DNA from: Candidatus Forterrea multitransposorum CG_2015-17_Forterrea_25_41 | GTDB lineage: Archaea > Iainarchaeota > Iainarchaeia > Iainarchaeales > CSSED10-239 | DNA: 64,000 nucleotides | Direction of reading: 5' to 3' | Assembly (NCBI GenBank): GCA_009392915.1 | Contig: CP045477.1 | Coordinates: 448,001-512,000, forward strand | In this document: piece after piece, positions 20,175 through 40,362 of the stretch | Layout of the letters: each line of letters opens with the position of its first letter | How positions within the stretch are numbered: the first letter of the stretch is position 1 | Translations under genes and position numbers: made by a program | Notes under the pieces: generated by a model | What the model was told of the DNA's origin: nothing | What the model saw: only the letters and a program-made list of their open reading frames with translations | The model's database searches: none

Positions 20175-20777
20175 TTATTTTATCTTTTTTAAAAAATACC
20201 AAAAAGCAATAAATAACACTACAAAACCAACTAAAAAAATCATTAAAACATTAAAATAATTTAAAACTGATTTTGAAATCTCTTCTCCAAGCTTATAACC
20301 AAGAATTGTTAAAAAAGAAACCCATAAAAAAGATCCTAAAAAAGTGTAAAAAATAAAATCTTTTAAAGGCATTTTTGAAAAACCAGCAGGAATAGAAATA
20401 TACTGTCTTACAACAGGTATTAACCTTCCAAAAAAAGTTGCTGATTTACCATATTTTTTAAAAAACAATTCTGCTTTTTCTAGATGAGAAATATTTATAA
20501 AGAATATTCTTTGGTGTCTTAAAAGATATCTCCTTCCTAAATAATAACCTATAGAATAATTTATTAATGCACCAAAAACAGAACCTAAAGTTCCTAAAAG
20601 AATTACAAGAAATATATTTAAATTACCTACATATGCAAAAGCACCTGCAGGAACCATTATGATCTCTGAAGGAAAAGGAATAAATGAACTTTCAATAGTC
20701 ATTAATAAAAACACCAATAAATGTCCAACAAATCCTGTTAAATAATCAGACAAAAATAAAATCATTTCTTCAAACAT
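20175..20777 (-). CDS. DedA/SNARE-associated family membrane protein
   Basis: Family-typical motifs (PFPSEIIMVPAGAFAY, GRLIPVVRQYISIPAG). Confidence 0.7.
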   Translation of the reverse strand: MFEEMILFLSDYLTGFVGHLLVFLLMTIESSFIPFPSEIIMVPAGAFAYVGNLNIFLVILLGTLGSVFGALINYSIGYYLGRRYLLRHQRIFFINISHLEKAELFFKKYGKSATFFGRLIPVVRQYISIPAGFSKMPLKDFIFYTFLGSFLWVSFLTILGYKLGEEISKSVLNYFNVLMIFLVGFVVLFIAFWYFLKKIK

Positions 20778-20805: not shown

Positions 20806-21510
20806 CTAAACTATATAACTAGATACAAAAAAGATTAAAAGACTTACTGGAAGTAAAAAACATAAATAAATCCAAACTTTCTTTGAATTACTATCAATCT
20901 GTGATAAATAAATTGAAGAAATTATAACATATTCAACTAAATATACAATTGCACAATAATAACTTACAATAAACAAACTAGAATTAGAAGTTAAACCAAC
21001 AACTGAAATATCAACAATTCCAGTTAAACTTTTAACCAAAGAAATTACAACCCCTAAAATCCCAGGAACAATAAAACCACCTGCAAAAAGAATAGTGTAT
21101 TTTTGCATTAAAAGAATTGAAGTTCTTTCATCAAACAATTCTCTTGATTTTAAAAAATCTTTAACTAAATTTTTATAATCTTTAGAAGTAACTGTTCCAG
21201 TAAAAACTGAATATTCTAAAAGATCTAAAAAATTTGAAAGAAAAGAAGAATTATATTTATTTTTTAAAATATTAAACACTTCTTTAGGGGTATGCCCTTT
21301 GTTTATTTTATTTAAAATTAATTTAAATTCAGAAGATATTAATTGATTACTGGAAGATGCAAGCTTTACTAAAATTACTTTTAGATCATTTGTTTTAACA
21401 AACCCAGAGATTCTTAAAACTTCATCAATTAAAGCATCTTCAAATTTCTTTCTCTTAATACTAAAAAAATAATCTCCAAATAAGTAATTTAAATACTTCA
21501 TTAATTTCAT
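20806..21510 (-). CDS. FlaJ/TadC-like (T2SS-F domain) half-protein: cytoplasmic helical domain plus C-terminal TM helices
   Basis: Domain layout and position immediately downstream of the secretion ATPase; weak sequence-level call. Confidence 0.45.
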   Translation of the reverse strand: MKLMKYLNYLFGDYFFSIKRKKFEDALIDEVLRISGFVKTNDLKVILVKLASSSNQLISSEFKLILNKINKGHTPKEVFNILKNKYNSSFLSNFLDLLEYSVFTGTVTSKDYKNLVKDFLKSRELFDERTSILLMQKYTILFAGGFIVPGILGVVISLVKSLTGIVDISVVGLTSNSSLFIVSYYCAIVYLVEYVIISSIYLSQIDSNSKKVWIYLCFLLPVSLLIFFVSSYIV

Positions 21511-21533: not shown

Positions 21534-22280
21534 TTATGGAAGATTAGCTTTCATTGTTAGGAATATAAACATATCAATTATTGGAAATAAAATAACAATT
21601 ATAAAAATAACAGATAAAGGTGTAAAAGATAATTCTAAAAAATTACTACCAACTAATAAAAACATTAAAAACAAAGCAGGAACAATTGCAGAAACAACAA
21701 TATAGATTAAAGATAAAAGACTTAATTTAGTGGAATAATTTTTAATTAAATAATTTTGTTTTTCAATAATACTTGAAGATAATGTTCTTAAAGATTCAGA
21801 TTTATTTAAAGAACCAGTAGATAAAACATCTTCAATCTGATAAAAAACTCTCTTTAAATCTGAGTTTTCAACACCCACAGAAATAAAAGATTCAGAAAGA
21901 GAATAACCTAAGACATTTACTTTATATAAAACTTTTTTAATAATTTGCCCAATTAAAGAAGAATCAACTCTATTTTCTAAAGCAATTTTTAAAGAAATAT
22001 TCTTATCTAAATCATTTGCAAGGTTATTTAAGAAAAAAGGAATTTCTTTATTTATTTGTCTTTGATGATTTTGAAGCTTAATCTTGTATTTAAAAAAAAT
22101 AATAAAAAAGAACATAAAGAAAAACATAATAAATAAATTAAATAAATAACTATAAGATAAACTAATAACCACTGAATCAATTAATAAAAAAATAATTAAA
22201 ATTATTAAATAGAGAATAATAAATAACAAAAAGTTCTTTCTTGTAAATATTTCTTTCTTTAAAAAAATATAATCAATCAT
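21534..22280 (-). CDS. FlaJ/TadB-like (T2SS-F domain) half-protein; overlaps the ATPase gene by 8 nt
   Basis: N-terminal TMs, central cytoplasmic helical bundle, C-terminal TMs; operon context. Confidence 0.45.
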   Translation of the reverse strand: MIDYIFLKKEIFTRKNFLLFIILYLIILIIFLLIDSVVISLSYSYLFNLFIMFFFMFFFIIFFKYKIKLQNHQRQINKEIPFFLNNLANDLDKNISLKIALENRVDSSLIGQIIKKVLYKVNVLGYSLSESFISVGVENSDLKRVFYQIEDVLSTGSLNKSESLRTLSSSIIEKQNYLIKNYSTKLSLLSLIYIVVSAIVPALFLMFLLVGSNFLELSFTPLSVIFIIVILFPIIDMFIFLTMKANLP

Positions 22281-24036
22281 AATCTTTTCTAATTAATATT
22301 TCATCAATTATTTTTTCTTGTTTCTTATAAACTTTAAGATAATCTTTTTTATTTTTAATATCAAATGCAAATTTTAATTTATCATAGATTTTAATAGAAT
22401 CATTAACTTTAATTAATTTATTTTTATAAATATCAAAATAAAATAAAACATTTAAAGAAATTTTTCCATCTTTATATATAACTTCACAGATTTCAGTAAT
22501 ATTTCTTAAATCAATAGATTTACCTTTTAAATATTTATTATATCTTCTTTGAGTTATAATTAAATCAATTACACCTAAATCAGTTTCTAAAACACCATAT
22601 GACTTAAACCTTAATAGAGCTTCATTAGCACTTTGAGAATGGAAAGTTGTATATGTACCTTTTGCTTGACCACAAAGCATAGATTCAATTAAATATTTTG
22701 ATTCTTCTCTACTTCTAATTTCTCCAATAACAACTCTATCAGGTCTCATTCTTAAAGTGTTTATAACTAAACTTTCAAGATTAATTCCAATCTCAGGATT
22801 TACAAGTGTAAAAACTTTATGTTTATGAGGGATATTTATCTCTCTAACTTCTTCAACAACAACAAATCTTTCATCTAAAGGAACAAAAGAAAGTAAAGTG
22901 TTTAAAGTGGTTGTTTTTCCAGAACCAGTATTTCCAACAACAATTATATTTGAATCTGTTAAAAAACAAAGACTTAAAAAAACTAAAGCTTCTTTTGAAA
23001 CTGTATTAAAAGAGATTAAATCTTTAATTGTAAATGGTTTTTGAGAAAATTTTCTAATAGTAATACAAGCACTTTCAGTTATTGGGTTTATAACTGCATT
23101 AAGTCTTGAATTATCTTTAAGATAAGTATCTAAAATTGGATTTTTTAAAGTAATATATTTATTTGAGTGCCAAGAAAGTTTATTAATTAAATCCCTTATT
23201 ACTTGAGAAGAAGAATAAGAAAGATTACTTTCAAGCCAACCATAATATTTATGATAAACATAAAGTGATTTTCCTTCTCCAATAATTACAATTTCTTCAA
23301 GATAAGGATCTTTTAATATTTCTGTTAATGGTCCATAATTATAAAGATTATTAAAAGAAATATCTATAATATAATTAAATTGATCTTCTTCAAGCTCTAT
23401 GTTATTAACATAACAATAATCAATTAATTCTTTTTCAATATCTTCTTTTATTCTTTCAGTTGAAACTTTTTCAATATATTCTGTTCTAGTTTTATAAGAA
23501 TCTAAAATAAAGTTAATAACTTCAATTTCTTGGATTGAAAGATTTTGATGAAAAATTAAATATCTTTTAGAAGAATCTTTCATTTCAAATACATTTTTAG
23601 AAATATTTCTTAAGATTTCTTTTTTTAAATCTAAAACAACATAACCTAAATATCTATTAAGAATATATTTCTTTTCATCATCAGTAAACTCATCCATTAT
23701 CTTTAATAAAGCAGGATTATTTTTATAACAAAACATAGAAAAAGAACTTAAAGCACATAAATCACATTTATAAGCTTTATTTTTTCTTAAGATAATAGCA
23801 TTATGTGGACAAGCTTTAAGACACTCACCACACCCATCACATTTTTCAGAATCAATTGCTACAACGCCTTTAGAAACATAATAAATAGCATTTTTTTTAC
23901 AAGCTTTAATACAAGGAGCATCTTTACAATTGGTACAATTGAATACACAAGAAGAGTCTTTTTTTGTAAAATTGTAAGGACAATTTAGAAAAACATCTGT
24001 ATCTTTGATAAAATCTTCTGTTTTCTTAAGATACAT
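22273..24036 (-). CDS. FlaI/VirB11/PilB-family secretion ATPase fused to an N-terminal 2x[4Fe-4S] ferredoxin-like domain
   Basis: N-terminus: CTNCKDAPCIKAC and the canonical CDGCGECLKACP (CxxCxxCxxxCP). ATPase core: Walker A VVGNTGSGKTTTLN, Walker B/Glu RPDRVVIGEIRSREE, His box TTFHSQSA. Confidence 0.75.
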   Translation of the reverse strand: MYLKKTEDFIKDTDVFLNCPYNFTKKDSSCVFNCTNCKDAPCIKACKKNAIYYVSKGVVAIDSEKCDGCGECLKACPHNAIILRKNKAYKCDLCALSSFSMFCYKNNPALLKIMDEFTDDEKKYILNRYLGYVVLDLKKEILRNISKNVFEMKDSSKRYLIFHQNLSIQEIEVINFILDSYKTRTEYIEKVSTERIKEDIEKELIDYCYVNNIELEEDQFNYIIDISFNNLYNYGPLTEILKDPYLEEIVIIGEGKSLYVYHKYYGWLESNLSYSSSQVIRDLINKLSWHSNKYITLKNPILDTYLKDNSRLNAVINPITESACITIRKFSQKPFTIKDLISFNTVSKEALVFLSLCFLTDSNIIVVGNTGSGKTTTLNTLLSFVPLDERFVVVEEVREINIPHKHKVFTLVNPEIGINLESLVINTLRMRPDRVVIGEIRSREESKYLIESMLCGQAKGTYTTFHSQSANEALLRFKSYGVLETDLGVIDLIITQRRYNKYLKGKSIDLRNITEICEVIYKDGKISLNVLFYFDIYKNKLIKVNDSIKIYDKLKFAFDIKNKKDYLKVYKKQEKIIDEILIRKDYD

Positions 24037-24140: not shown

Positions 24141-25061
24141 ATGGAAGATGAATATATTATTATTTCAACAAACAAAGAAAAAGCCCAAGCAACAACAATT
24201 GCAAATAAACTAAATCTTACACTTGGAGATATTAATATAAAACAAGTTCAAGGTTCAGAAACAAGTGTTGATGTTAAAAGTTATGTAAATTATAAAAAAG
24301 TATTTTTAATATATAACATATCTCAACCAGTAAATGAATCAATAATGCAACTTTTATTTATAGCTGATGCCATAAGAAAAGAAGGTGCTGAAAAAATATA
24401 TTTAATTACTTCTTATCTTCCTTACACTAAAATAAAATATAGAACAGAATATAAATTAAATTTTAGTTTATTTTCAAGACTTTTACAAGAAACAAATATT
24501 GATAAAATATATACTTTTGGTCTTTATTCTCCAAAAATAAGTTTTTATCTTAAAATACCTCTTTACAATGTTCCTTTAATAAATCTTTTTTCAAAAGTTA
24601 TTGAAGATAATTTCACTAAAAATAAAAATCTAATAATAACTACAATAGATTATGAAATGCAAGAAACTTCAAAAGATATTGCTAAAAAAACAAAATCAGA
24701 AGTTATTTTTCCAACAAAAGACATAATTAACAATAAAATTAAATTTAATATCTCAGGAAATGTTAATGGAAAAGATATTTTAATAATTTCAGATTCAATA
24801 TTTACTGGAGAAAACATTATTGAATATTCAAACTATTTAACACTTAAGGGTGCAAAAAACATATCAGTTATAGCAACACATGGTATTTTAGATAAAAAAG
24901 CAATACCTCTAATTGAAAAATCTGTGATTAAACAAATATATGTAATTAATCATAATTATCAAAAATCAGAAAAAATAAAAATAGTTTCAACAACTAAGAT
25001 AATTGAAGAAATTATTAAAAGAACTGTAGATAAAAAGAACCTTAAAAACGTATTAAAATGA
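24141..25061 (+). CDS. divergent ribose-phosphate pyrophosphokinase (PRPP synthetase) homolog, probably non-catalytic
   Basis: Strong similarity to the Prs N-domain (VFLIYNISQPVNESIMQLLFIADAIRKEGAEKIYLITSYLPY) but the catalytic ARQDRK and the PRPP-loop DDxxDTxGT are replaced (TKIKYR; ISDSIFTGEN). Confidence 0.5.
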   Translation: MEDEYIIISTNKEKAQATTIANKLNLTLGDINIKQVQGSETSVDVKSYVNYKKVFLIYNISQPVNESIMQLLFIADAIRKEGAEKIYLITSYLPYTKIKYRTEYKLNFSLFSRLLQETNIDKIYTFGLYSPKISFYLKIPLYNVPLINLFSKVIEDNFTKNKNLIITTIDYEMQETSKDIAKKTKSEVIFPTKDIINNKIKFNISGNVNGKDILIISDSIFTGENIIEYSNYLTLKGAKNISVIATHGILDKKAIPLIEKSVIKQIYVINHNYQKSEKIKIVSTTKIIEEIIKRTVDKKNLKNVLK

Positions 25062-25132
25062 TTTAAATATCTTTCTATACTATATAATATATACTTGTTT
25101 TTGTAAACAATAATTAAAGGTTGTGATGAAAA

Positions 25133-25612
25133 ATGATAAAAAGTGGAATGAAAAACCAAAATGAAAATAATGATAATTATTTAACAATTATCCTTGATGA
25201 TGGGGATGAAGTTGTTTATTGTGTAGAATCTGCTTTTAAAGAAAACTCTATCAAGAAAGCTATATTAGTTTCTGCAGATGGAAAACTAAGAGATTCAAAA
25301 ATGGCAATCTCAAGAGCAGGAAACCTAAGACAAAGAATATATTCAGAACCTTTAAAGATTAAACAAGTTTCAGGAGAATTTAATAAAATAAATGATGATT
25401 ATTTTGGAGATGTTAACATCTCTCTTGAAAAAGACCCAATCCATACTGTAAGTGGAGCTTTACTTAAAGGAATTGCAGATGGAGAAGTAACAATTAGATT
25501 TAAAATAATTAAAGATCTTGATTATCAACCTAATAATACAAAAACAATGGTTAAAGAAAAAATAATACAAGAAACTGTTAAAAAAGAACCTAAGCCTATG
25601 ATTATAGCTTAG
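25133..25612 (+). CDS. DUF296/PPC-domain protein
   Basis: Overall similarity to the PPC (DUF296) fold: an ...AILVSADGKL...AISRAGN...VSGALLKG-IADGEVTIRF pattern. Confidence 0.45.
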   Translation: MIKSGMKNQNENNDNYLTIILDDGDEVVYCVESAFKENSIKKAILVSADGKLRDSKMAISRAGNLRQRIYSEPLKIKQVSGEFNKINDDYFGDVNISLEKDPIHTVSGALLKGIADGEVTIRFKIIKDLDYQPNNTKTMVKEKIIQETVKKEPKPMIIA

Positions 25613-31290: not shown

Positions 31291-33081
31291 TCATCCATAA
31301 GTAGTTGCTTTAATACTTTTAACTACACCACTTACAAGAACCCAGCCACCCCATTGACCAGTATTTCTGGATGAATTGGTTACAGATAAAGTCCAACCAG
31401 GTTCACTGTCACCAACTTCCCAATATTTACATTTTTTAGAAGAACCAAAAGCTTCTACTTTAATATTATAATTACCAGCAGGAACTTTCCAAGATCCATC
31501 TTTATCAGTTGCAAGTTGTGAACCACCATATTTAAGATATAAACCATCATTTCCATAATCATTAGTTATTGAACAAACATATGAAGCACTTGTTGAAGAA
31601 TAATTAAAAGTGAGACCTGCTTGAGAAGTATCATTTTCAGAAGCTAAACTAACTACTCCTTCTAAAACTAAATTACCTTGTGTACTTAAACCCTGGTAAA
31701 AGAAACCTGCAGAAGACCAAAATTCATTTAATTTAACACCACCACCTGAGAACGCAGGCTGAGCTACAACTGTACCACCTGATTGCGACCAACCAGACAA
31801 ACTAGTAATACTAGTTTGATTTAATAAAACTACAGCAGGAGCTGATAGAACAAGATTAATACTTGAACTTGTTGCTGTTCTTGAAGCACCATCTGTTACA
31901 GTTACTCTAATATATTTTGTACCAGTAGTTGAAAATGAATAAGTTGGATTTGAAACTGAAGTTCCAAAAACAATCCAAGTACTTTGATTTGTACTATATT
32001 CCCAGGAATAATTAGATACTCCAGAAACTGCATTACTTACAGAAGAATTAAAACTTATTGTTTGACCAGTATCATAATTTGTACCAGTTGTTGGAGAAGT
32101 AACACTTACAGCTAAAGGATCACTAATTAAAATATTACTAACAGTATCAGAATAAACTTGATTAATAGGAGAAGGTCTTGAAGCATCTGTAACTAAAACT
32201 CTAAACTCATAAGTCCCACCTGTTGCAAAACCATTTGTTGTAGTATAACTATTAGAACCAAAGTTAGTCCAACCAGTACTGTTTCTATTATACTGCCATT
32301 GATAAGATTTAGTACCAATTGCATTTGAAACACCTACATCAAATATTATTCCTTCACTAAGATTATAAACATCACTTGCATCAGGAGTATAAATAGTTGC
32401 TGTTAATGGAAGAACAACTGTAAAATCTTCACTTGAAGTTGAAATATCTCCAGTTCCAGAATCTGTTACTTTATAATAAATAGTATAGCTTCCTGTTGAA
32501 GATAAAGTTTGAGATAAAGAAGCACAATTAGTACCAACTGCAGTATTAGTATCATTTGAGTTTAATATCCATTCACAAGAAACTGTTGAAACATTATTAT
32601 CATAATTTCCAGTAAATGAAATTGTTTCATTATTATTCCAAGTAGTTCTTGACATTGTAATACTTGAAGATAACAAATCTAAAATATTTATTCCAATTGT
32701 TTGAGAATCACTTGAAGAATCAAAATCATCTAAAGTATCTAATTTAATTGAATAATCATTAAATACTGAAAAAGAATAACTTGTATTACAATCAGTACTA
32801 AAAGATGTAAATGATGGTAAGTCAGCTCTCTTATGACTCCAATTACAAGTTACATTTCCAACATTATTACTATATGAAGAATTAAAATTAATTGTTTTTG
32901 TAACATTATAATTTGATTCTTCTGTTGGATTTAATATTGTTGATGAAAAATCATCAAAAATTTCAACAAATAAATCATCACTAAAAGTTCCTTCATCATC
33001 ATTTGCAATTACTAAAATTTCATAAATTCCAGGAGTTGTAAAAGTATAAGAAATATCACACAAGGTATCTGAAGGATTCAT
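31291..33081 (-). CDS. S/T-rich, beta-rich repeat (PKD/Ig-like) surface adhesin-like domain; lacks its own signal peptide. The frame continues upstream through 46 sense codons to a single TAA that terminates the pilin-like ORF
   Basis: ORF track plus manual frame check (see findings); composition SSYSN, TGT, repeated roughly 90-aa modules. Confidence 0.5.
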   Translation of the reverse strand: MNPSDTLCDISYTFTTPGIYEILVIANDDEGTFSDDLFVEIFDDFSSTILNPTEESNYNVTKTINFNSSYSNNVGNVTCNWSHKRADLPSFTSFSTDCNTSYSFSVFNDYSIKLDTLDDFDSSSDSQTIGINILDLLSSSITMSRTTWNNNETISFTGNYDNNVSTVSCEWILNSNDTNTAVGTNCASLSQTLSSTGSYTIYYKVTDSGTGDISTSSEDFTVVLPLTATIYTPDASDVYNLSEGIIFDVGVSNAIGTKSYQWQYNRNSTGWTNFGSNSYTTTNGFATGGTYEFRVLVTDASRPSPINQVYSDTVSNILISDPLAVSVTSPTTGTNYDTGQTISFNSSVSNAVSGVSNYSWEYSTNQSTWIVFGTSVSNPTYSFSTTGTKYIRVTVTDGASRTATSSSINLVLSAPAVVLLNQTSITSLSGWSQSGGTVVAQPAFSGGGVKLNEFWSSAGFFYQGLSTQGNLVLEGVVSLASENDTSQAGLTFNYSSTSASYVCSITNDYGNDGLYLKYGGSQLATDKDGSWKVPAGNYNIKVEAFGSSKKCKYWEVGDSEPGWTLSVTNSSRNTGQWGGWVLVSGVVKSIKATTYG

Positions 33082-33219
33082 TCTTACTTGTGATCCACCT
33101 GCAATTGTATGATACCATTCACAAGAAACACTTCCTCTTTGATAAAGTGTATCAGTTTCAAAAGAAACAGAAGTGTTTACTCTGAATGAATCAAAATTTG
33201 TAACATTTGAAAAGAAAAT

Positions 33220-33744
33220 TTAAGAAGATGGAAGTTCTACAGCACATTTTCTTAAATCAATTGTTTTTTTAGGACAAGTAGAGTTTGATAAAGTAAAAAC
33301 CTTTAAATCTAAAGGATCAATTATTTCTCCAGAATCAACATTAATATCAGAATTTACAATTGTAAAATCAGTTGTTGATTTTAATTTTTTAATTTCTCCA
33401 GATAAAATAGGATTATCAAAATTACCATACATTTTTAGAACATTTGAAGAATTTTGAGAAGTTCCTTGAATATTTAAAGAAAGATTATAAAAATCAATAG
33501 GGGTTGGGTTTCTTAATAAAACTTCAATATTTCCAGTAGTTGAATCAAGATTACAAGATTCTACAACTAAATTATACTTAATACAATCCATTCTAGAAAC
33601 TTCTTGTAATTGATCTTGTGAAACATCTAATTTTTCTCTAACAGATGTTTTTGACCAAGATAAAAATCCTGCAACTAAAACAGCTGTTACCAAGATTAAT
33701 AAAACTACAGAAATTATTGCCGAAATTGATTTTTTTCTATTCAT
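33220..33744 (-). CDS. type IV pilin-like protein (class III signal peptide); probably the N-terminal part of a pilin-adhesin fusion
   Basis: MNRKKS|ISAIISVVLLILVTAVLVAGFLSW: basic residues, a small residue at -1, a hydrophobic helix (archaeal prepilin signature); in frame with the downstream adhesin ORF. Confidence 0.55.
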   Translation of the reverse strand: MNRKKSISAIISVVLLILVTAVLVAGFLSWSKTSVREKLDVSQDQLQEVSRMDCIKYNLVVESCNLDSTTGNIEVLLRNPTPIDFYNLSLNIQGTSQNSSNVLKMYGNFDNPILSGEIKKLKSTTDFTIVNSDINVDSGEIIDPLDLKVFTLSNSTCPKKTIDLRKCAVELPSS

Positions 33745-33830
33745 AAATATCTTTTTTAAAATATAATATAATTATAGATATTATAGAAACTATTTTAAAG
33801 GTATCTTTATTCTTTTAAAAAAATAAATAT

Positions 33831-34172
33831 TTAAAAAGAAATAATATCATTTATTTTTATAAAAGAAATATCTGTTTCAATTGGAAGTTCAATTATATAT
33901 TTAGCTTTCTTTTTTGGAGAATAAAAAGTAAAAGGTCTTAATCTTTTTTTAATATCAATAACTTTTTTATTTGAATCTAGAAAAAGAACATTTATTGAAT
34001 AGAAAACAAAAAGCATATGAATTGAAGAGCCTACAATAGATTCATATTCTCTTTTAAAAATAAGACCAAAATCAAATTTCTTTCTTGGAAAAAACATAAG
34101 TCCAAGTCCTTGTTTTAAAGGAGAAATTATTTTCTTTTTTTTAATTATTATTTTATTATTAACTTTTATCAA
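33831..34172 (-). CDS. DUF192 (COG1430) family small protein
   Basis: GLGLMFF...FGLIF...IHMLFV.YSINVLFLD...YIIELP matches the DUF192 consensus. Confidence 0.5.
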   Translation of the reverse strand: MIKVNNKIIIKKKKIISPLKQGLGLMFFPRKKFDFGLIFKREYESIVGSSIHMLFVFYSINVLFLDSNKKVIDIKKRLRPFTFYSPKKKAKYIIELPIETDISFIKINDIISF

Positions 34173-34178
34173 AAATAA

Positions 34179-35330
34179 TCACACTTTTTTTTTTAAACTT
34201 ACCCTATATAAAATAACAAAATCAATATCAGATTTTCTAATCTCAAAATCAAAAAATACAGCATCTGGTACAAAAATAGCATACTCTGCACAAGAAAGAC
34301 CACATTCACTTTGATCAAAAGGTAAAAAATATAGATTATTACTATATGTTTTATCTAGAATATATTTAGAACTAATAGATTTTAAAGCAATGACTTCAGA
34401 AATATTTACTTGTTCTAGCTGATTACGATTCATATAGGTAATAGTGTCAATTAAAACACTCTCAGCATCTGGTTTTGGAACAGCAATTTGAAAGATTAAA
34501 ATTGTAAATATAAAAAATATGAAAATATATTTGATAAAATTAAAACTACTTTCTTCTTTTATTGCAAACATTATAAAAGAAATAAAGATAGAAAGAACAA
34601 TTGCCATATAAAGAAGGAAATTATCAAAAAATATTCTTGTTATTAAATCTTGATCTGCATACCATAAAAAATTATTACCTAGTATAATATTTATGAATAA
34701 AATTACAACTAAAAAGATTACAAATAAAACAATGGATAAATAATATAAATTTAAAAAATATTTTTTCTTTTGTGTTTCTTCTTTAAAAATAGAAATATCT
34801 TTTGAAATATTTAAAAGAACTCTATCAAGAGGTATAGAACTTTCTTTAAAAGTCTTTAACAATATTAAAGTGTGAGTGATTATTGGACTTTTAATAGTCT
34901 CATTAATACCTGATAAAGCATTTTCAAAATCATCTCCCCAAGAAACTCTATTTGCTATTCTTTTTATTTCTGTATCAATTGAACCATAAACATTTGATGT
35001 TGTGATATTGTTTAATGATATTGATAAATTATTTGTAGATTTATACTCTCTCGATAAATCTTGTAAAAAGAATGTAAAAGAAGTTTCAATTGCTTTCTTT
35101 TTAAAGTGTTTTAAAACATATTCTAAAACAAAACCTAAAAAACTTACGAAAAAACCAAAAAAGAAAACTGCATAGTATAATTCAGTATGAAGAAAATATT
35201 TATTTGATAAATGAACAATTAAAAGACCAGATAAAATACTTGCAAGAATTAATATTTGGTATTCATAATTATAAATTAATAGTTTTAATTTAATATTCAT
35301 TTTATCTAAAAATTTATTTTTTTCTATCAT
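34179..35330 (-). CDS. FlaJ/TadC-like polytopic membrane protein (T2SS-F-like half)
   Basis: TM helices flanking a cytoplasmic helical region; operon context. Confidence 0.4.
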   Translation of the reverse strand: MIEKNKFLDKMNIKLKLLIYNYEYQILILASILSGLLIVHLSNKYFLHTELYYAVFFFGFFVSFLGFVLEYVLKHFKKKAIETSFTFFLQDLSREYKSTNNLSISLNNITTSNVYGSIDTEIKRIANRVSWGDDFENALSGINETIKSPIITHTLILLKTFKESSIPLDRVLLNISKDISIFKEETQKKKYFLNLYYLSIVLFVIFLVVILFINIILGNNFLWYADQDLITRIFFDNFLLYMAIVLSIFISFIMFAIKEESSFNFIKYIFIFFIFTILIFQIAVPKPDAESVLIDTITYMNRNQLEQVNISEVIALKSISSKYILDKTYSNNLYFLPFDQSECGLSCAEYAIFVPDAVFFDFEIRKSDIDFVILYRVSLKKKV

Positions 35331-35346
35331 TTAAAAATCAATCTCT

Positions 35347-36189
35347 TCATTTATATAAAATCCCAATTAATACAAATTCAATTACTGCAAATATTATTGA
35401 AAAAATCAACAATGATTCTTTTAATAAAAAATAATCTGTAAAAGTTATAAAAAATATTATTAAAATAACAATAAAAAAGAAAAATAAAAATATTGACATT
35501 AAAAATAAAATATTAATTCTACTTTTCTTTTGTTCACTTAACTCTCTTTTAGATTGTTCTAAATTAGTTAAGAAATCAAGAATAACTTGATTTAAGTCTT
35601 CTTTTTGATCAATAACTTCAATTAATTTTCTAAAGAAGTTTTTTTCAACTTCAGAATATGTTTCAGAAATTATTGATTTAAAAGTATCTTTAAGATTATG
35701 ATTTCTTTTATTTAAAGCAATTATTTTCTTTGCTTCTCTGCTTAATATATCATTATTTTCTAAGTTTTCAAAAACATTCAATACATCTTTAATAGTTAGA
35801 TTTTCATCTCTTAAAACAGATAAATGTTTTATAGATCTTTGAAATTCACTACCAATTTCTTTTTTTATATTATTTAAAATAAAAAAAGGATATTTAAATA
35901 AAAGTAAAAAAATCATAAAAGCAAAAGTAAAAGAAATAAAAATAGTTATAAAAAAACTAAAAAGATTAAACAATATTCCAAGTCTAATCATTAAATAAAT
36001 AAAAGCAAACTCTATAACTATTAAAAAAAATATAGAAATAAAAGAAATATTTGAAATATAACTAATAGAATCTTCATTGATACCAGTATATTCTAAAACT
36101 CTATCAAAATTTTTAAAAGTACCTTTAAATTGCATAACAATATCTTTTAAGAAAAATAAAGATATACTTGTTAAGAATTTACTAAACAT
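35347..36189 (-). CDS. FlaJ/TadB-like polytopic membrane protein (T2SS-F-like half)
   Basis: N-terminal TMs, cytoplasmic helical domain (EIGSEFQRSIKHLSVLRDENLTIKDVLNVF), C-terminal TMs; starts 7 nt after the upstream stop. Confidence 0.4.
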   Translation of the reverse strand: MFSKFLTSISLFFLKDIVMQFKGTFKNFDRVLEYTGINEDSISYISNISFISIFFLIVIEFAFIYLMIRLGILFNLFSFFITIFISFTFAFMIFLLLFKYPFFILNNIKKEIGSEFQRSIKHLSVLRDENLTIKDVLNVFENLENNDILSREAKKIIALNKRNHNLKDTFKSIISETYSEVEKNFFRKLIEVIDQKEDLNQVILDFLTNLEQSKRELSEQKKSRINILFLMSIFLFFFFIVILIIFFITFTDYFLLKESLLIFSIIFAVIEFVLIGILYK

Positions 36190-36196
36190 ATTTTTT

Positions 36197-39100
36197 TCAC
36201 TTTATATCGAGTCTTTTAAACAACTCGTCCTTTTCATAATTATATTGAGAGATAATACTATTAAAATCTTTGTAATTGTATACTTTTGAATCCTTCATCC
36301 ATCTCATAAGTTTCTTTTTCTTTAAAAAATCAACAACATTTATTGAAGAAGATAAAAGATTAATATTGTATTTATTTTCGGATATTTCTAAATCTACAAC
36401 TACACTTTCATTTTTATTAATTATTTCTTTAATATTTACAATTTGATAAGTTTCTTTAAAACCTTGTTTAATTCTTTTAATTTCTATTAGAATAGATTTT
36501 TGATTAACCATTTTTAATTGTTCAATAAATTTATCAGCAACATTTGGTTTTATTGAAAAGATATTTAAGTTATACCAAGAAACATCAAAAATATCTTCTC
36601 CAAACTCATCAATTGCAATAATATCTGGTTTCTGAGAAATTGTTTGTTCAATAATTAAACGTTTACTTAAATCTGCATTATTTGTAAAAATTCTATTAAT
36701 CCATTCTTTTTGAGGAAGTTTAAATCTATCGTATGCCTGAACAGTTATAATTTTCTGATCAGGATAAAATAAAAGTATAGAATTATAAATTACAAAAGAA
36801 TCATCAACATCATGTAAAATAACTTTATAGTTTTCTGAAATTGCAGACCAGATATATGAAAATACATCTACAGAACCAATAGATGTATTAACTAAAGCAA
36901 CAGGTGTTAATGGTTCATCAAGATATTTTTTAATTACAAAAGAAGAACCTTTACTACTAGTATCTCCTAAAGAATAAAGACCTTCAACTTTATAACCATT
37001 AGGTAAATATCCATCAATCACAGGATGTTCTGGAGTTATATAGATACCCATATTTTTAGTTAAAATAGTTACAAAGTTATTTAACTCAATAATATCTTTA
37101 AAACTAATATTTGTTTTTAAAACACCATACTCTACATGGTAAACTATAAGATTTGATTTTTCACCAGAACAACTAACTTCAATTATTTTTTTATCAAGTA
37201 AAAGATTAGTTAAAATACCTAACCCAAAAAATTCTCTTTGAATAAATTTAAGATAAAGTTTTTGTTGTAATTTACCTAAACTATAAGATAATTTTTCAAC
37301 AGAAATATCAAATATTTTTTGAATATATTTATCAAGACTATGTTTATCTCCATTAAAAGAATAATAGTTTTTATCGATTGTATTAAAAAATACTTTTTTT
37401 AATTGAATATATTCTTTTTCTTGTTCACTATTAAGTTCTGGTTGTACTAAATTATAGAAAAGACCTTTAGTATTATCATAATGTATTGTAACATATGTAA
37501 AATCATCTATAGAATATTTATCAAAAATATTTTTTATATTTTCTTCAAATGAAGCAATAGGATCTTGATACACTAAAGAAGAAAATAGAGAATTGTCAGA
37601 AGATAATTTTTCTTGATATATTTCTTTATTTATTTTAACAGGATTTTTTCCAGCATCTTTTGGAAGGATATAATCCATACCTTTTTCTCTTAAGTCTTTA
37701 AATTTTTCTGCAATTAAATCATTTTTAACTTTCGGAGTTAATTTTACTTCTTTGATAATTTTAATTTCTTGTTCTTTTGGTAATGATTCTTTTTTAATTG
37801 TTTTAGATATTTTTTCATCATCATTATCTTCATCAGAATAATTCTCTTTTGAAGTAACTTTTTCTTCTCTTATAGAAGGAGAAATATATTTTTTATTTTT
37901 GTTTGAAATTTTAGATTTATCTTTTTTATTTTTAGGAGAAGAAATTTCTCTCATACCTTTATATATTCTTTCATCATCTTCTTTAGATAAATCAACATCA
38001 GAAAATACTTTTTTAACATCTTCTTCATCTTTATCTATTTTCTCATTTAAAACATTAACATCAAATTTTTCTTTTTCTTTTTCTTCTAAAGTTTTTGATT
38101 TTTTTAATTTAGAAATATTATTTTCAATTTCAGAATTTAATTTTACTTGATTATTATCAATTACAAAATTTGGTGTTTTTTCAGAAGATTCATTTGTTTT
38201 AATTTCAGAAGATAAAGAAGAATCTTCATTTAAAACTTTTAAATCATTTTTTGAATCTTTATCATATACAGAAAACTTATCTTCAACAGTGTTAGATAAA
38301 TCTTTAACATCATCTTCAATTGCAAAAATATCTGGAACTTCAATTTCTTCAAATAAACCATTAGCCTCACCTAAAGAAGAATTATTTAAATGAGAACTAG
38401 AATTTTTAGAATCTATTTCTAAATTACCTGTGTTTTTAGGAAAATCATTTGAATTTGCTAAAGTTTCTTTATTTTGAGAATCTTTATTTTTATTTACAGA
38501 TAAATGATCTATTTTTGAATATAAATTTTTAACATCATACTTTGGAAAATCAATTTTACTTTTTTTAGGTTTATCATCTAAAAAAGAAAATGATTCTAAA
38601 TAAACTTCTTGATCAAGTTTACTTGCTTTTTTATTTAATTGATCTAATAAATCATCTACATTTTCATTTTTTGATTTTACTTCTGAAAAAATATCATTTG
38701 ATTCTTTACTTTCAGAATATTCTTTTGGTTTAGATACATTTTCTAAAATATCTTTCAAAAGAGACATGGTTTTTTTATTATTATTTGATTCATCAAAATT
38801 TATTTCTTTTTTAATTGAATTATCAATATGATCTATTTTAGGCTCACTTATTAAAAATGAATTTGAAGGTTTTATTTTTTTTTCAGAAGATGAATCCGAA
38901 AGTAGTAGTTCATGAGATGAATCAGGGAGTAATAATTCATTATTAATTTTTGATGAAATTAATTTATTAGATGTTGATTTTTTATCAACTTTATCTAAAG
39001 GAACTTCTTTTTTAAAAATATTAGAATTATCAACCTTATCTAAAGGAACTTCTTTTTTAGAAATATTAGAATTATCAACTTTATCTAAAGGAACTTCTTT

Positions 39101-39547
39101 TTTAGAAATATTAGAATTATCAACTTTATCTAAAGGAACTTCTTTTTTAGAAATATTAGAATTATCAACTTTATCTAAAGGAACTTCTTTTTTAGAAATA
39201 TCTAAATTATCAACTTTATCTAAAAGAATCTTTTTTTTTCTAAAAGGATTAAAATCTTTATATTTTTCTTCAATATCAGAAGTGTCAACTTTTAAGTTTA
39301 CTTTCTTAACATCATTATAATTTTTATTTAAAGAAAAATCATCTTTTTTAGTTTCTGGTAAAACTACATCAAATTTTTGTAATTTTTTAGAATTACTATT
39401 ATTTTTTAAAGAACTATCAATTTTATCTTCTTTTAAAGAACTATCAAATTTATTATTTTTTACAGAATCTGAAGCTTTAGATATAGATTTAGATAGAGGA
39501 ATTCTTTTAATAACCTTAAAACCAGAAAAATTATCCTCTCCACCCAT
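36197..39547 (-). CDS. giant FlaI/PilB-like pseudo-ATPase: roughly 650-aa disordered K/D/S/E-rich N-terminal region with 5x DKVDNSNISKKEVPL repeats, plus a C-terminal FlaI N-domain and a degenerate ATPase domain with no P-loop
   Basis: C-terminal half aligns with the active ATPase at 22273-24036 (LLLDKKIIEVSCSGEKSNLIVYHVEYGVLKTNISF vs ILKDPYLEEIVIIGEGKSLYVYHKYYGWLESNLSY), but Walker A GNTGSGKTT is replaced by HDVDDSFVI and Walker B RPDRVVIGEIRSREE by KPDIIAIDEFGEDI. Confidence 0.6.
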   Translation of the reverse strand: MGGEDNFSGFKVIKRIPLSKSISKASDSVKNNKFDSSLKEDKIDSSLKNNSNSKKLQKFDVVLPETKKDDFSLNKNYNDVKKVNLKVDTSDIEEKYKDFNPFRKKKILLDKVDNLDISKKEVPLDKVDNSNISKKEVPLDKVDNSNISKKEVPLDKVDNSNISKKEVPLDKVDNSNIFKKEVPLDKVDKKSTSNKLISSKINNELLLPDSSHELLLSDSSSEKKIKPSNSFLISEPKIDHIDNSIKKEINFDESNNNKKTMSLLKDILENVSKPKEYSESKESNDIFSEVKSKNENVDDLLDQLNKKASKLDQEVYLESFSFLDDKPKKSKIDFPKYDVKNLYSKIDHLSVNKNKDSQNKETLANSNDFPKNTGNLEIDSKNSSSHLNNSSLGEANGLFEEIEVPDIFAIEDDVKDLSNTVEDKFSVYDKDSKNDLKVLNEDSSLSSEIKTNESSEKTPNFVIDNNQVKLNSEIENNISKLKKSKTLEEKEKEKFDVNVLNEKIDKDEEDVKKVFSDVDLSKEDDERIYKGMREISSPKNKKDKSKISNKNKKYISPSIREEKVTSKENYSDEDNDDEKISKTIKKESLPKEQEIKIIKEVKLTPKVKNDLIAEKFKDLREKGMDYILPKDAGKNPVKINKEIYQEKLSSDNSLFSSLVYQDPIASFEENIKNIFDKYSIDDFTYVTIHYDNTKGLFYNLVQPELNSEQEKEYIQLKKVFFNTIDKNYYSFNGDKHSLDKYIQKIFDISVEKLSYSLGKLQQKLYLKFIQREFFGLGILTNLLLDKKIIEVSCSGEKSNLIVYHVEYGVLKTNISFKDIIELNNFVTILTKNMGIYITPEHPVIDGYLPNGYKVEGLYSLGDTSSKGSSFVIKKYLDEPLTPVALVNTSIGSVDVFSYIWSAISENYKVILHDVDDSFVIYNSILLFYPDQKIITVQAYDRFKLPQKEWINRIFTNNADLSKRLIIEQTISQKPDIIAIDEFGEDIFDVSWYNLNIFSIKPNVADKFIEQLKMVNQKSILIEIKRIKQGFKETYQIVNIKEIINKNESVVVDLEISENKYNINLLSSSINVVDFLKKKKLMRWMKDSKVYNYKDFNSIISQYNYEKDELFKRLDIK
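38991..39230 (-). repeat. five near-perfect 45-nt tandem repeats (unit TTATCTAAAGGAACTTCTTTTTTAGAAATATTAGAATTATCAAC), in-frame within the pseudo-ATPase gene
   Basis: Seen directly; encodes (DKVDNSNISKKEVPL)x5. Confidence 0.9.
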
Positions 39548-39630
39548 AAATATGCCTTCTTTAAAATATATTTTAATATATAGATATTAGTTCATTAGAT
39601 TTATAAATCTTTAGATATTTTTTAATAGCT

Positions 39631-40362
39631 TCAAATAACAAAAGAAATAATTTTTGGAATAATTTCAAAAACATATAAAAGAATTAGAAAGATATAACTT
39701 ACTAGGATTAATATAATAAATGGAATTAAAGGAGAAAACCACACCTTAGAAATATTATGATTTTTAGCAATAACTTTAATTTTTTTAATTTCATTTTCTG
39801 GTTCAATATTTGGCATAAAAACAATTTTTGAAATTAATTTATTATTTTCTACATACAATTTTTCTAAAGGAGTATAAAAATTATTTACTTTTTTTAAAGA
39901 TAAAGGAACCCCTAAAAACATTAGATATAATGATTTAAAAAAATTATATTTAGGAAAATTTCTTGAAAATAAATTATATAAAAATAAGAAAACAGGTATA
40001 AGTAAAGTTAAAACTAAAGCAAAAAAGAAAATAAACATTGGAAAATATATATCAAAAATATTTGTAAATGATATTGCAAAAATAGTATAAAGATCCCCTT
40101 CTCCTATATATGTAAAATAACTAATCTTTCCTAAAACATAAAAAATTAATAAAAATATAAAACTTACAGCAAGTTGTATTAAATAACCTTTCCATAAAAT
40201 AAAATCTGTTTTAAAAACAAAAATACCTAAATAAAGAATACTAAAGATGGCTAAGAAAAATAAAGACATTATATTTATTTCTCTATACTTAATATCTTGA
40301 TAAGTTACATACAATAAAATAATTATAGAAAAAATAATTATTGGTAAATAAATATAATCCAT
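39631..40362 (-). CDS. A24-family prepilin/preflagellin peptidase (FlaK/PibD-like)
   Basis: Polytopic; first catalytic Asp in YQDIKYREINI, second in IGEGDLYT (a GxGDxK-like motif). Confidence 0.55.
   Translation of the reverse strand: MDYIYLPIIIFSIIILLYVTYQDIKYREINIMSLFFLAIFSILYLGIFVFKTDFILWKGYLIQLAVSFIFLLIFYVLGKISYFTYIGEGDLYTIFAISFTNIFDIYFPMFIFFFALVLTLLIPVFLFLYNLFSRNFPKYNFFKSLYLMFLGVPLSLKKVNNFYTPLEKLYVENNKLISKIVFMPNIEPENEIKKIKVIAKNHNISKVWFSPLIPFIILILVSYIFLILLYVFEIIPKIISFVI

Follow-up and report, generated by a model that had tools for sequence, protein, structure and literature searches.

The open reading frame at positions 22273–24036 in Candidatus Forterrea multitransposorum raises the question of what an iron-sulfur module is doing at the N-terminal end of an ATPase that builds surface filaments. 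Positions are those of the window, i.e. the entire 64,000 nt stretch of contig CP045477.1 that was analyzed, and the ATPase gene, its parts and the two platform genes are on the minus strand. Type IV filament (TFF) ATPases are among the best-studied prokaryotic motors, and regulation enters at their N-terminal extensions, e.g. by c-di-GMP via MshEN. To our knowledge, an Fe-S polyferredoxin input on a T4P/T2SS ATPase has not been described. In this tiny, symbiont-type DPANN archaeon, a secretion/pilus ATPase with complete catalytic motifs is joined in one frame to a genuine Fe-S module of the ferredoxin type. The fusion is conserved and undescribed, and suggests that the building of surface filaments is tied to the redox or iron-sulfur state of the cell.

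The gene, a polyferredoxin-TFF assembly ATPase fusion, is a single frame of 587 aa that starts with ATG and has in-frame stops just upstream. The protein is identical to NCBI NCP72030.1 and is found unchanged on 38 contigs. It has matches to Pfam Fer4 families and to T2SSE, and the AF2 model of the full 587 aa chain has a mean pLDDT of 92.9. The initial annotation had considered that the N-terminal region might belong to a separate upstream open reading frame brought in by a frameshift. This is rejected, as the frame is uninterrupted, stops lie in frame upstream of it, and homologues share the fusion and can be aligned from M1.

The Fe-S module encompasses residues 17–108 (23713..23988) and has 12 conserved cysteines; C30 is not conserved. 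The initial annotation had pointed to two cysteine clusters, CTNCKDAPCIKAC and CDGCGECLKACP, and both are present, at residues 34–46 and 66–77, respectively. The first is Cys group II, CxxCx4CxxxC (C34, C37, C42 and C46; 23899..23937), which aligns with the tCqqCddapCisvC motif of 9MQX_E. The second is Cys group III, CxxCxxCxxxCP (C66, C69, C72 and C76-P77; 23806..23841). The count was incomplete however, because C19-P20 and C91/C94/C103 had been missed and there are 12 conserved cysteines, not 8. C19-P20 (23977..23982) is the sole remnant of group I, of which C19 is the fourth cysteine; relatives have CxxCxxCxxxCP at this location. Group IV is partial (residues 91–108; 23713..23766) and consists of CxxCx8C, with C91, C94 and C103, followed by N107-P108 in place of the fourth Cys-Pro.

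In FdnH, NarH and DmsB the ligands of one cluster are the first three cysteines of one group and the last cysteine of the partner group. From these structures, the predicted ligand sets here are C19 with C91/C94/C103, C34/C37/C42 with C76, and C66/C69/C72 with C46, so that C19 is the predicted fourth ligand of the C91/C94/C103 cluster. Twelve of the 16 cysteines of four-cluster subunits are kept. Those absent are cysteines 1–3 of group I and cysteine 4 of group IV, and three [4Fe-4S] clusters are therefore predicted. The module had been proposed to be a 2x[4Fe-4S] dicluster ferredoxin. The ferredoxin-type character and the in-frame fusion hold, but the module does not have the form of a simple bacterial-type ferredoxin, i.e. 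a domain of about 55 residues with two CxxCxxCxxxCP motifs and nothing more. It is predicted to be a trimmed four-cluster polyferredoxin of the DmsB/HycB/WOR5-S type. The module descended from a four-cluster unit of this type, and one terminal cluster was lost in this lineage.

Analysis with Pfam shows five Fer4 families (Fer4_6, Fer4, Fer4_11, Fer4_9 and Fer4_7) each above its gathering cut-off within residues 33–95; Fer4_11 covers residues 33–95 with 30.8 bits (cut-off 26.2). The double-ferredoxin fold spans all four Cys groups, and the N-domain alone is modelled confidently (pLDDT 92.8). In alignments with solved holo-proteins, the cysteines of the module fall on the Cys motifs that bind clusters. 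The top structural matches are HycB and AOR-type polyferredoxins, and the strong structural neighbours are Fe-S proteins only, with no zinc ribbons. A zinc-ribbon or tetracysteine site, which the initial annotation had weighed against cluster binding, does not agree with neighbours that are cluster-binding subunits, nor with a loss of cysteines by ligand set. Bacterial PilB and GspE do have a tetracysteine Zn site, which is located in the C-terminal domain, and its existence counts for a Zn site. However, the two CxxC pairs of the PilB/GspE type are not found in the C-terminal ATPase domain of the Forterrea protein, where the cysteines are isolated (positions 324, 357, 455 and 517) and form no CxxC pair.

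Among 82 homologues C19 (with P20), C46, C66, C69, C72, C91, C94 and C103 are invariant, and the cluster ligand positions are the most conserved positions. The Fe-S module is more highly conserved than the N-terminal domain (NTD) of the ATPase and is under strong purifying selection.

The distribution of ferredoxin-ATPase fusions, also raised in the initial annotation, is broad. The same architecture is seen in over 100 clusters of homologues with identities as low as about 35%, and the fusion defines one DPANN clade (Iainarchaeota, Micrarchaeota). When 110 N-termini of the family are compared, 56 have 16 cysteines, 46 have the pattern "...CCCCCCCCCCCC." and two have "...C...CCCC.CCC.". Each loss consists of the first three cysteines of one group and the last cysteine of the partner group. 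Relatives with 16 cysteines have the fourth cysteine of group IV, where the Forterrea protein has Asn. The lost cysteines are replaced mainly by hydrophobic residues, i.e. I/V in the Forterrea protein and V, I, L and F in 8-Cys forms, with N107 as the exception. The region of the lost cysteines is retained, not deleted.

The 8-Cys forms are nested inside the 12-Cys clade in an NJ tree (computed without support values), and this sub-clade has lost the ligands of one internal cluster. Another sub-clade is devoid of the whole Fe-S module and has kept the operon; its proteins start around the residue 109–160 linker. Gene fission in this sub-clade is rejected, as the upstream gene encodes a protein of about 1200 aa with no Fe-S motif, and no CxxCxxCxxxC open reading frame that could represent a separate ferredoxin gene is present within ±6 kb of the module-less ATPases. 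Thirty ordinary CpaF/TadA-type ATPases served as controls and also as outgroups of the tree. These came from a profile search of genome contigs with the family alignment, which picked up generic ATPase motifs. Among the matches listed, none of the 30 controls has a Cys-rich N-terminus (0/30) and there are no members of the fusion family.

The module is followed by a linker, a small beta-rich region at residues 109–160 (23557..23712). This is the least conserved region of the protein and contains the invariant G131 of an "LGW" motif. Alignment to Archaeoglobus fulgidus GspE (2OAP) and FlaI (4II7) places the ATPase NTD at residues 161–290 (23167..23556). The catalytic RecA-like C-terminal domain (CTD) is at residues 291–500 (22537..23166), and a beta/alpha tail, residues 501–587, together with the stop codon ends the gene (22273..22536). 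The T2SSE match covers residues 294–498 (E-value 2e-35, 122.4 bits, cut-off 24.9). A complete catalytic apparatus had been claimed, and this is fully borne out: Walker A (GNTGSGKTT, 368–376), the acidic Asp/Glu box (VVVEEVREI, 392–400, with the Glu pair E395/E399), the Walker B region and the His box (TTFHSQSA, 463–470) are all intact. The sequence RPDRVVIGEIRSREE is at residues 431–445, and RPDRVVIGEIR occupies 431–441. K374, T375, E395, E399, R431-D433 and H466 are invariant among the 82 homologues.

The best solved relatives by sequence are afGspE 2OAP (E-value 9e-45), FlaI 4II7 (7e-37) and CpaF 8RKD (2e-34). Foldseek matches of the NTD and RecA-like CTD fold to the same three structures have E-values of 1e-29 to 3e-33 and target-normalised TM scores of 0.66–0.77. 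The designation "FlaI/VirB11-type" is thus correct at the superfamily level but not below it. The FlaI/ArlI equivalog NF058587 of NCBIfam gives 175.2 bits (cut-off 550), the VirB11 equivalog TIGR02788 gives 137.7 (cut-off 249.95) and the TadA equivalog TIGR03819 gives 146.8 (cut-off 373.15). The gene context is of pilus type, and the archaellum genes looked for (FlaH, a single FlaJ, FlaF/G and archaellins) are found neither beside the gene nor in related loci. A bona fide FlaI, VirB11 or TadA is rejected, since the equivalog scores are far under the cut-offs and the gene context is wrong.

Neighbours of the ATPase gene are two split T2SSF genes, a VTT/DedA gene, a PRPP synthetase gene and a PCC-domain gene. 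Platform gene 1 (21534..22280) has a weak T2SSF match and is translationally coupled to the ATPase gene, whose stop codon overlaps the ATG of the platform gene by 8 nt (ATGATTGA). Platform gene 2 (20806..21510) matches T2SSF above the cut-off. The first platform protein has no cysteines and the second has only two; there is thus no obvious cofactor site for passing electrons across the membrane. At the position of platform gene 1, the related loci L081, L083, L085 and L088 have T2SSF genes, and the two-platform arrangement is kept in all four. The trio of the ATPase gene and two T2SSF genes is kept from 98% down to about 35% identity. The gene encodes the ATPase that drives assembly in a minimal type IV filament machine of archaea, made up of this ATPase and a membrane platform from two genes. 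In the Albers-lab 2026 classification, archaeal TFF "system 1" and DPANN 4A loci typically have a pair of platform genes, and the Forterrea locus displays this arrangement of an ATPase with two separate platform genes.

No other CxxCxxCxxxC Fe-S open reading frame is present in the window or within ±6–8 kb in six related loci (the search was for this motif). Around the locus, neither the window nor the six related loci show an oxidoreductase partner, i.e. a molybdo/tungstopterin enzyme or a hydrogenase, and no conserved neighbouring redox partner gene was found across them. A pilin-like open reading frame and a prepilin peptidase are encoded 9–16 kb from the ATPase gene. There is also a second filament locus with a conserved, catalytically dead ATPase paralogue (36197–39547).

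The best explanation, to which we would give a little less than an even chance, is that the polyferredoxin may act as a redox- or integrity-dependent input or adaptor domain of the filament ATPase. The proposal is by analogy with the N-terminal regions of the superfamily. The redox state of the clusters, or whether they are intact or have been lost to O2, oxidants or a shortage of iron, would set the engagement of the motor, and the hexameric motor, when engaged with the platform, would polymerise pilins. Where a DPANN cell lives by fermentation and lacks a respiratory chain, the signal would probably be reported by the cytoplasmic ferredoxin pool or by exposure to oxygen. Filament assembly, and with it attachment to hosts or surfaces, would be permitted only when conditions are suitably reducing. 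An input or adaptor role is supported by the lack of a nearby CxxCxxCxxxC Fe-S open reading frame in the window and related loci. It also agrees with the life style of DPANN relatives, which are ferredoxin-linked fermenters that have type IV pili and lack an electron transport chain, and the requirement for AapX in Sulfolobus Aap pilus assembly is a precedent.

Redox or O2 sensing by the module, as suggested in the initial annotation, is what we infer by this analogy. Counting against sensing, a row of three or four clusters typifies an electron wire, and known Fe-S sensors usually have one cluster. In favour of an input or adaptor role, the 8-Cys sub-clade has dispensed with an internal cluster and another sub-clade has shed the module, which indicates that a continuous path for electrons is dispensable and that the module is accessory. 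Loss of the module or of a cluster in sub-clades fits a dispensable structural decoration equally well, and since the operon was kept throughout these losses, a structural role is nearly as plausible as sensing.

A purely structural Fe-S adaptor, comparable to that of ABCE1/Rli1, is somewhat unlikely but is the strongest alternative. The clusters would be permanent and redox-silent, and would rigidify an N-terminal module that docks the ATPase on the cytoplasmic face of the two-part platform or aids oligomerisation; nothing would be sensed. This fits the replacement of lost cysteines mostly by hydrophobic residues in a region that is retained, the confident model of the Forterrea module after such losses, and the 8-Cys sub-clade, in which any wire would be broken. 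The absence of a conserved redox partner gene nearby agrees as well. ABCE1 itself is a weak structural match of the module (Foldseek E-value 0.26), and HycB and AOR-type polyferredoxins, the top structural matches, mediate oligomerisation into filaments. However, an oxygen-labile and biosynthetically costly three-cluster module is an expensive choice of adaptor in a reduced genome, and it is the cluster ligands that are the most conserved positions. The sub-clade that has the same operon and no module argues that the module is not a mechanically essential adaptor.

An electron conduit is improbable. Here the module would be a working wire that takes electrons from, or gives them to, a partner at the machine's base, i.e. 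ferredoxin, an AapX-like oxidoreductase encoded in trans, or ultimately the filament or the host. In favour are the fold, which is seen in subunits dedicated to electron transfer, and the genetic requirement for AapX, an Fe-S/FAD oxidoreductase, in a different pilus of archaea. The three predicted clusters that are retained would also be contiguous in the canonical chain, as in NarH and FdnH. Against this are the lack of an oxidoreductase or CxxCxxCxxxC open reading frame in the window and within ±6–8 kb of the six related loci, platform proteins with zero and two cysteines, the 8-Cys and module-less variants, and the lack of electron transport chains in these lineages. Still more improbable is a form of this proposal in which the hexameric motor, with its 18 predicted [4Fe-4S] clusters (6 x 3) in a ring at the foot of the filament machine, would be a true electron-transfer device. 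It would pass ferredoxin electrons of the symbiont to a trans partner, the filament or the host, or electron flux would set the direction of assembly and disassembly without a retraction ATPase; the dead ATPase paralogue of the second filament locus could dock there. Finally, the alternative that no clusters are bound has almost no probability. The N-terminal region would in this case be a zinc ribbon, a tetracysteine site or a Cys-rich leader that arose by chance, or else a small ferredoxin gene and an ATPase gene would have been joined by an error of gene calling or assembly. DPANN MAGs can hold assembly errors, but this alternative is effectively refuted by the uninterrupted frame and its identical copies, the fusion common to the homologue clusters, the Fer4 matches and structural neighbours, and the retained CxxCxxCxxxCP spacing with cysteines lost one cluster's worth at a time.

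If the input or adaptor role is true, an Fe-S polyferredoxin input would be a new regulatory principle for the ATPase superfamily. It would couple the assembly of filaments, with which DPANN archaea are thought to attach to hosts and surfaces, directly to the redox, oxygen or iron-sulfur state of the cell. The host organisms have not been cultured, and what the module does is entirely inferred. The question of Fe-S clusters in pilus assembly is made more tractable by the natural 16-, 12- and 8-Cys forms and the module-less variants, which constitute a ready-made mutational series.

Compared with known systems, A. fulgidus GspE (2OAP), FlaI/ArlI (4II7) and CpaF/TadA (8RKD) have the same NTD and RecA-like CTD, all catalytic motifs, and T2SSF genes downstream. 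None has an Fe-S module, whereas the Forterrea protein adds about 110 N-terminal residues that constitute the polyferredoxin. N-terminal regions in the T4P/T2SS ATPase superfamily are the site of partners and signals, e.g. GspE N1, which binds GspL, and the N-terminus of FlaI, and the MshEN domain of MshE/PilB binds c-di-GMP. MshEN and GspE N1 are likewise extra domains N-terminal to the NTD-CTD core of the same motor superfamily, and differ from the Fe-S polyferredoxin here in that their ligand is a second-messenger nucleotide or another protein. ABCE1/Rli1, a mechanochemical ATPase, has an N-terminal 2x[4Fe-4S] domain whose role is structural and does not involve catalytic redox chemistry. 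It resembles the Forterrea protein in having a ferredoxin-like Fe-S domain N-terminal to such an ATPase. However, it is an ABC ATPase with two clusters, whereas the Forterrea protein is a RecA-like secretion ATPase of a family with a predicted three or four.

The relatives of the module itself are four-cluster subunits, i.e. WOR5-S (6X6U_B), the AOR polyferredoxins (9MQX_E and 8C0Z) and HDCR HycB3/4 (7QV7), and further electron-transfer subunits such as PsrB (2VPW_B), FdnH (1KQF_B) and NarH/DmsB. In contrast to these, the Forterrea module has only 12 cysteines and has lost one terminal cluster. The four-cluster subunits are free-standing beside catalytic oxidoreductase or hydrogenase subunits, whereas the module is covalently joined to a motor ATPase.

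Full-text searches of the literature and a targeted reading of two archaeal TFF censuses turned up no mention of a ferredoxin-fused TFF ATPase. The latest census reports no evidence for ATPase gene fusions, and the fusion clade thus appears to have been overlooked. An analogous case is AapX (Saci_2316), annotated as an Fe-S oxidoreductase (arCOG07320), deletion of which abolishes the Aap pili of Sulfolobus acidocaldarius. Here too an Fe-S protein belongs with a type IV pilus machine of archaea, but the likeness is by analogy only. AapX is a separate, membrane-anchored protein with homologues that have an FAD-binding domain, whereas the Forterrea module is fused to the ATPase. Alongside AapX, the fusion provides a second, independent case in which an Fe-S protein is linked, this time covalently, to the pilus machinery of an archaeon.

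The open reading frame at window positions 22273–24036 (minus strand) encodes a predicted 587 amino acid protein, here termed the Fdx-ATPase, that joins a polyferredoxin module to a type IV filament (TFF) assembly ATPase. The window is archaeal, as shown by an archaeal SRP RNA found in it, and is very AT-rich (GC about 20–32%). All motifs quoted for this locus in the initial annotation are present: the Cys motifs CTNCKDAPCIKAC (residues 34–46) and CDGCGECLKACP (66–77), the Walker A motif GNTGSGKTT (368–376) and the ATPase motifs RPDRVVIGEIRSREE (431–445) and TTFHSQSA (463–470). Pfam analysis places the secretion ATPase family T2SSE at residues 294–498 (E = 2e-35) and finds five ferredoxin families (Fer4_6, Fer4, Fer4_11, Fer4_9 and Fer4_7) above their gathering cut-offs within residues 33–95. 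The frame is unbroken, starts with ATG and has in-frame stops immediately upstream, and the identical protein (NCBI NCP72030.1, "Flp pilus assembly complex ATPase component [archaeon]") is found on 38 contigs in public databases. The fusion is therefore real, as was originally proposed, and a separate upstream reading frame, a frameshift or an assembly artefact is rejected. Cluster mates of NCP72030.1 carry the name Candidatus ainarchaeum; the phylum of Iainarchaeum is Iainarchaeota, in the kingdom Nanobdellati, the equivalent of DPANN.

AF2 models the full-length protein with confidence (pLDDT 92.9, pTM 0.78), and its closest solved relatives are A. fulgidus GspE 2OAP (sequence E = 9e-45; Foldseek E = 3e-33, TMt 0.73), FlaI 4II7 and CpaF. 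Equivalog scores are 175 for FlaI (cut-off 550), 147 for TadA (cut-off 373) and 138 for VirB11 (cut-off 250). These are far under the cut-offs, thus the earlier label "FlaI/VirB11-type" is correct only at the superfamily level, and a bona fide FlaI, TadA or VirB11 is rejected.

A homologue search, with representatives clustered at 90% identity, gives more than 100 proteins that have both Fer4 and T2SSE, at identities down to about 35%. Names on these are Iainarchaeum/ainarchaeum, Diapherotrites, Micrarchaeota or simply "archaeon". Alignment of 110 N-termini shows 16 Cys in four groups in 56 of them, with the spacing CxxCxxCxxxC (I), CxxCx4-6CxxxC (II), CxxCxxCxxxC (III) and CxxCx5-8CxxxC (IV). 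The query is among 46 that display the pattern ...CCCCCCCCCCCC; two display the 8-Cys pattern ...C...CCCC.CCC., and the other six are apparently N-terminally truncated.

In four-cluster ferredoxins (FdnH, NarH, DmsB) the ligands of a cluster are Cys 1 to 3 of one group and the last Cys of its partner group, I being paired with IV and II with III. Compared with these canonical sets, the 110-sequence alignment shows that the query clade lacks exactly I-1, I-2, I-3 and IV-4, i.e. one ligand set, and that the 8-Cys clade additionally lacks II-1, II-2, II-3 and III-4, a second set. By naive arithmetic, random four-Cys losses among 16 positions would place both events on canonical sets with a probability of ~(4/1820) x (3/495), roughly 1e-5. 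At most of the lost Cys positions a hydrophobic residue is present, I/V in the query and V, I, L or F in the 8-Cys forms; at group IV the fourth Cys of the query is N107 and the Pro after it is kept. C19, C46, C66, C69, C72, C91, C94 and C103 are invariant in 82 full-length sequences. In conservation the Fe-S module ranks second among the regions of the protein, with a mean identity of 61% in the near group and 45% in the far group, compared with 56% and 29% for the ATPase N-terminal domain (NTD).

Because Cys are lost as whole ligand sets and the retained ligands are conserved, the query is predicted to bind three [4Fe-4S] clusters, with ligands C19 + C91/94/103, C34/37/42 + C76 and C66/69/72 + C46. 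The dicluster ferredoxin of the initial annotation thus holds as an Fe-S ferredoxin module, recognized by Fer4 families, but not in its number of clusters, as the 12-Cys pattern predicts three. From these patterns we conclude that the module descends from a four-cluster ancestor via loss of a terminal cluster. The 8-Cys sub-clade, P0018/P0021 (locus L089, 6001–7839), keeps the module, with V/I/L and F in place of the internal-cluster ligands (II Cys 1–3 and III Cys 4), and Fer4 is no longer detected in P0021 by precomputed Pfam. These forms are natural 'cluster knock-outs' that could serve for testing function.

An exhaustive search with query residues 1–290 against 1.84 billion 50%-identity representatives gave 7 hits at E <= 1e-30 and 62 at E <= 1e-10. 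Among the matches listed, roughly 20–25 proteins, as read from the table, span the junction between ferredoxin and NTD; the rest are free-standing ferredoxins or ordinary ATPases. A Cys-rich N-terminus is found in none of the 30 generic archaeal and bacterial relatives listed, which include other Micrarchaeota, Woesearchaeota and Iainarchaeum genomes. The phylogenetic distribution was followed on a neighbor-joining tree without support values, built from 144 sequences over 266 query positions of the ATPase core. The 110 fused sequences all group in a single clade, and every generic relative lies outside it. The 12-Cys clade together with P0078 forms one branch, within which the 8-Cys forms are nested, and the second branch beside it is almost wholly 16-Cys.

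Three unfused tips within the fused clade are truncated gene calls. P0100, P0118, P0119 and P0120 are a genuinely module-less sub-clade whose sequences start around a conserved "GW" linker motif. In the two looked up, P0119 and P0100, the operon is kept (ATPase, T2SSF membrane platform genes, PAC2), and there is neither an upstream ferredoxin gene nor an Fe-S-motif open reading frame within +/-6 kb; this therefore looks like secondary loss and not fission. Other archaeal and bacterial relatives (P0083, P0087, P0102 and P0105; L009, L004, L014 and L017) have long N-terminal extensions of other kinds, in open reading frames of 836–1189 aa without Cys motifs. Elaborated N-termini seem common among TFF ATPases.

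The Fdx-ATPase gene ends in an 8-nt overlap (ATGATTGA) between its stop codon and the start ATG of the following gene, and the two genes directly after it encode T2SSF platform proteins by Pfam, the first as a weak match. This trio is kept at 54% (L083), 39% (L081) and 35% (L085) identity to the query. Archaeal TFF "system 1" is marked by two platform genes, as are some DPANN 4A loci. Neither a pilin nor a peptidase gene is part of the operon itself; in M. maripaludis the pilus ATPase and two membrane proteins are likewise encoded apart from the pilin/peptidase locus. A PAC2-family (proteasome assembly chaperone-like) gene is located just past the platform genes in each of the four loci examined from 16-Cys and module-less members (L081 11701–12441, L085 11737–12480, L087 10290–11051 and L088 9203–9958). 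The query's clade lacks it and has a VTT/DedA gene downstream instead.

Genes at 24141–25612 (plus strand) and 20175–20777 (minus strand) flank the operon in the window. Synteny of the flanks extends across the 12-Cys clade (54–59% ATPase identity; L083, L084, L089): upstream are a divergently transcribed PRPP synthetase and a PCC-domain gene, which L089 also has, and downstream is VTT/DedA (L083, L084). This synteny suggests a stable chromosomal position and not a mobile island.

A second TFF locus is found at 31291–40362, with all genes on the minus strand. It contains a prepilin peptidase (39631–40362; Peptidase_A24 and Arc_PepC_II), a 1116-aa open reading frame (36197–39547), two T2SSF platform genes (35347–36189 and 34179–35330), a possible DUF192 open reading frame (33831–34097) assigned by eye and by position only, L091 having DUF192 there, a pilin-like open reading frame (33220–33744) with N-terminus MNRKKSISAIISVVLLILVTAVLVAGF and without a Pfam match, and a PKD-domain protein (31291–33081). 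DUF192 genes recur beside these DPANN filament loci, some close to the operon of the Fdx-ATPase and others immediately following the locus of the dead ATPase (L081 842–1195, L085 6838–7143, L090 12574–12924 and L091 14546–14896).

The C-terminal ~340 residues of the 1116-aa sequence share homology with secretion ATPases (E = 1.3e-13 in comparison with the Fdx-ATPase), with Walker A, the Glu pair, GE(I/V)R and the His box all replaced. The N-terminal ~650 residues are low-complexity and K/D/S/N-rich, and contain a 45-bp tandem repeat (38982–39239; 5.7 copies, 96% matches) that encodes the repeated peptide KKEVPLDKVDNSNIS. Walker A is missing in 17/17 relatives (41–73% identity; 14 of them 757–835 aa), as are the other catalytic motifs in the seven aligned. 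Given these replacements and the absence of Walker A throughout the relatives, the sequence is apparently an ATPase paralogue that is conserved and catalytically dead. Its gene directly follows that of the prepilin peptidase in both relatives looked up, and two T2SSF genes come next in one of them, L091. Judged by motifs, no filament ATPase in the window other than the Fdx-ATPase is catalytically intact, and the dead paralogue may serve as scaffold or partner of the Fdx-ATPase.

The fusion is conserved and situated in a pilus-type operon, its cluster ligands are selected as whole sets, and the Cys patterns give four, three, two or no clusters depending on lineage. Partners and signals act on the N-terminal regions of the secretion ATPase superfamily, e.g. 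GspL on GspE N1, c-di-GMP on MshEN, and the FlaI N-terminus. In DPANN relatives metabolism is fermentative, with ferredoxin-linked 2-oxoacid oxidoreductases; these relatives have type IV pili but no electron transport chain. These N-terminal inputs and the fermentative setting, together with the missing internal cluster of the 8-Cys forms and the module-less sub-clade, lead us to favor, tentatively, an accessory input or adaptor role for the Fe-S module. The redox state or integrity of its clusters would gate engagement of the motor with the platform, and filament assembly would thereby be tied to reducing conditions. A redox-silent structural adaptor, like the Fe-S domain of ABCE1, is nearly as plausible as redox gating. 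A working electron conduit is unlikely: no neighboring redox enzyme or partner gene is found at any locus examined, the platform proteins are Cys-poor (none in the first, only two in the second), the missing internal cluster of the 8-Cys variants would interrupt any wire, and one sub-clade lacks the module. A non-cluster site or an artefact is essentially excluded.

Both parts of the Fdx-ATPase are known, the TFF ATPase and the DmsB/HycB-type polyferredoxin, and automated pipelines have already labelled both domains. Their combination appears undescribed: ferredoxin and Fe-S go unmentioned in the 2016 census of archaeal T4P systems, the latest census of archaeal TFF systems reports no sign of fusions of ATPase genes, and other full-text literature searches found no ferredoxin-fused TFF ATPase. 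The fusion would surprise specialists, and its natural forms make up a series with 16, 12 or 8 Cys or no module, with the caveat that the hosts are uncultured and that we infer the function. AapX, an annotated Fe-S oxidoreductase, is required for assembly of the Aap pilus in Sulfolobus and is the nearest functional precedent for an Fe-S module on a pilus machine, by analogy.
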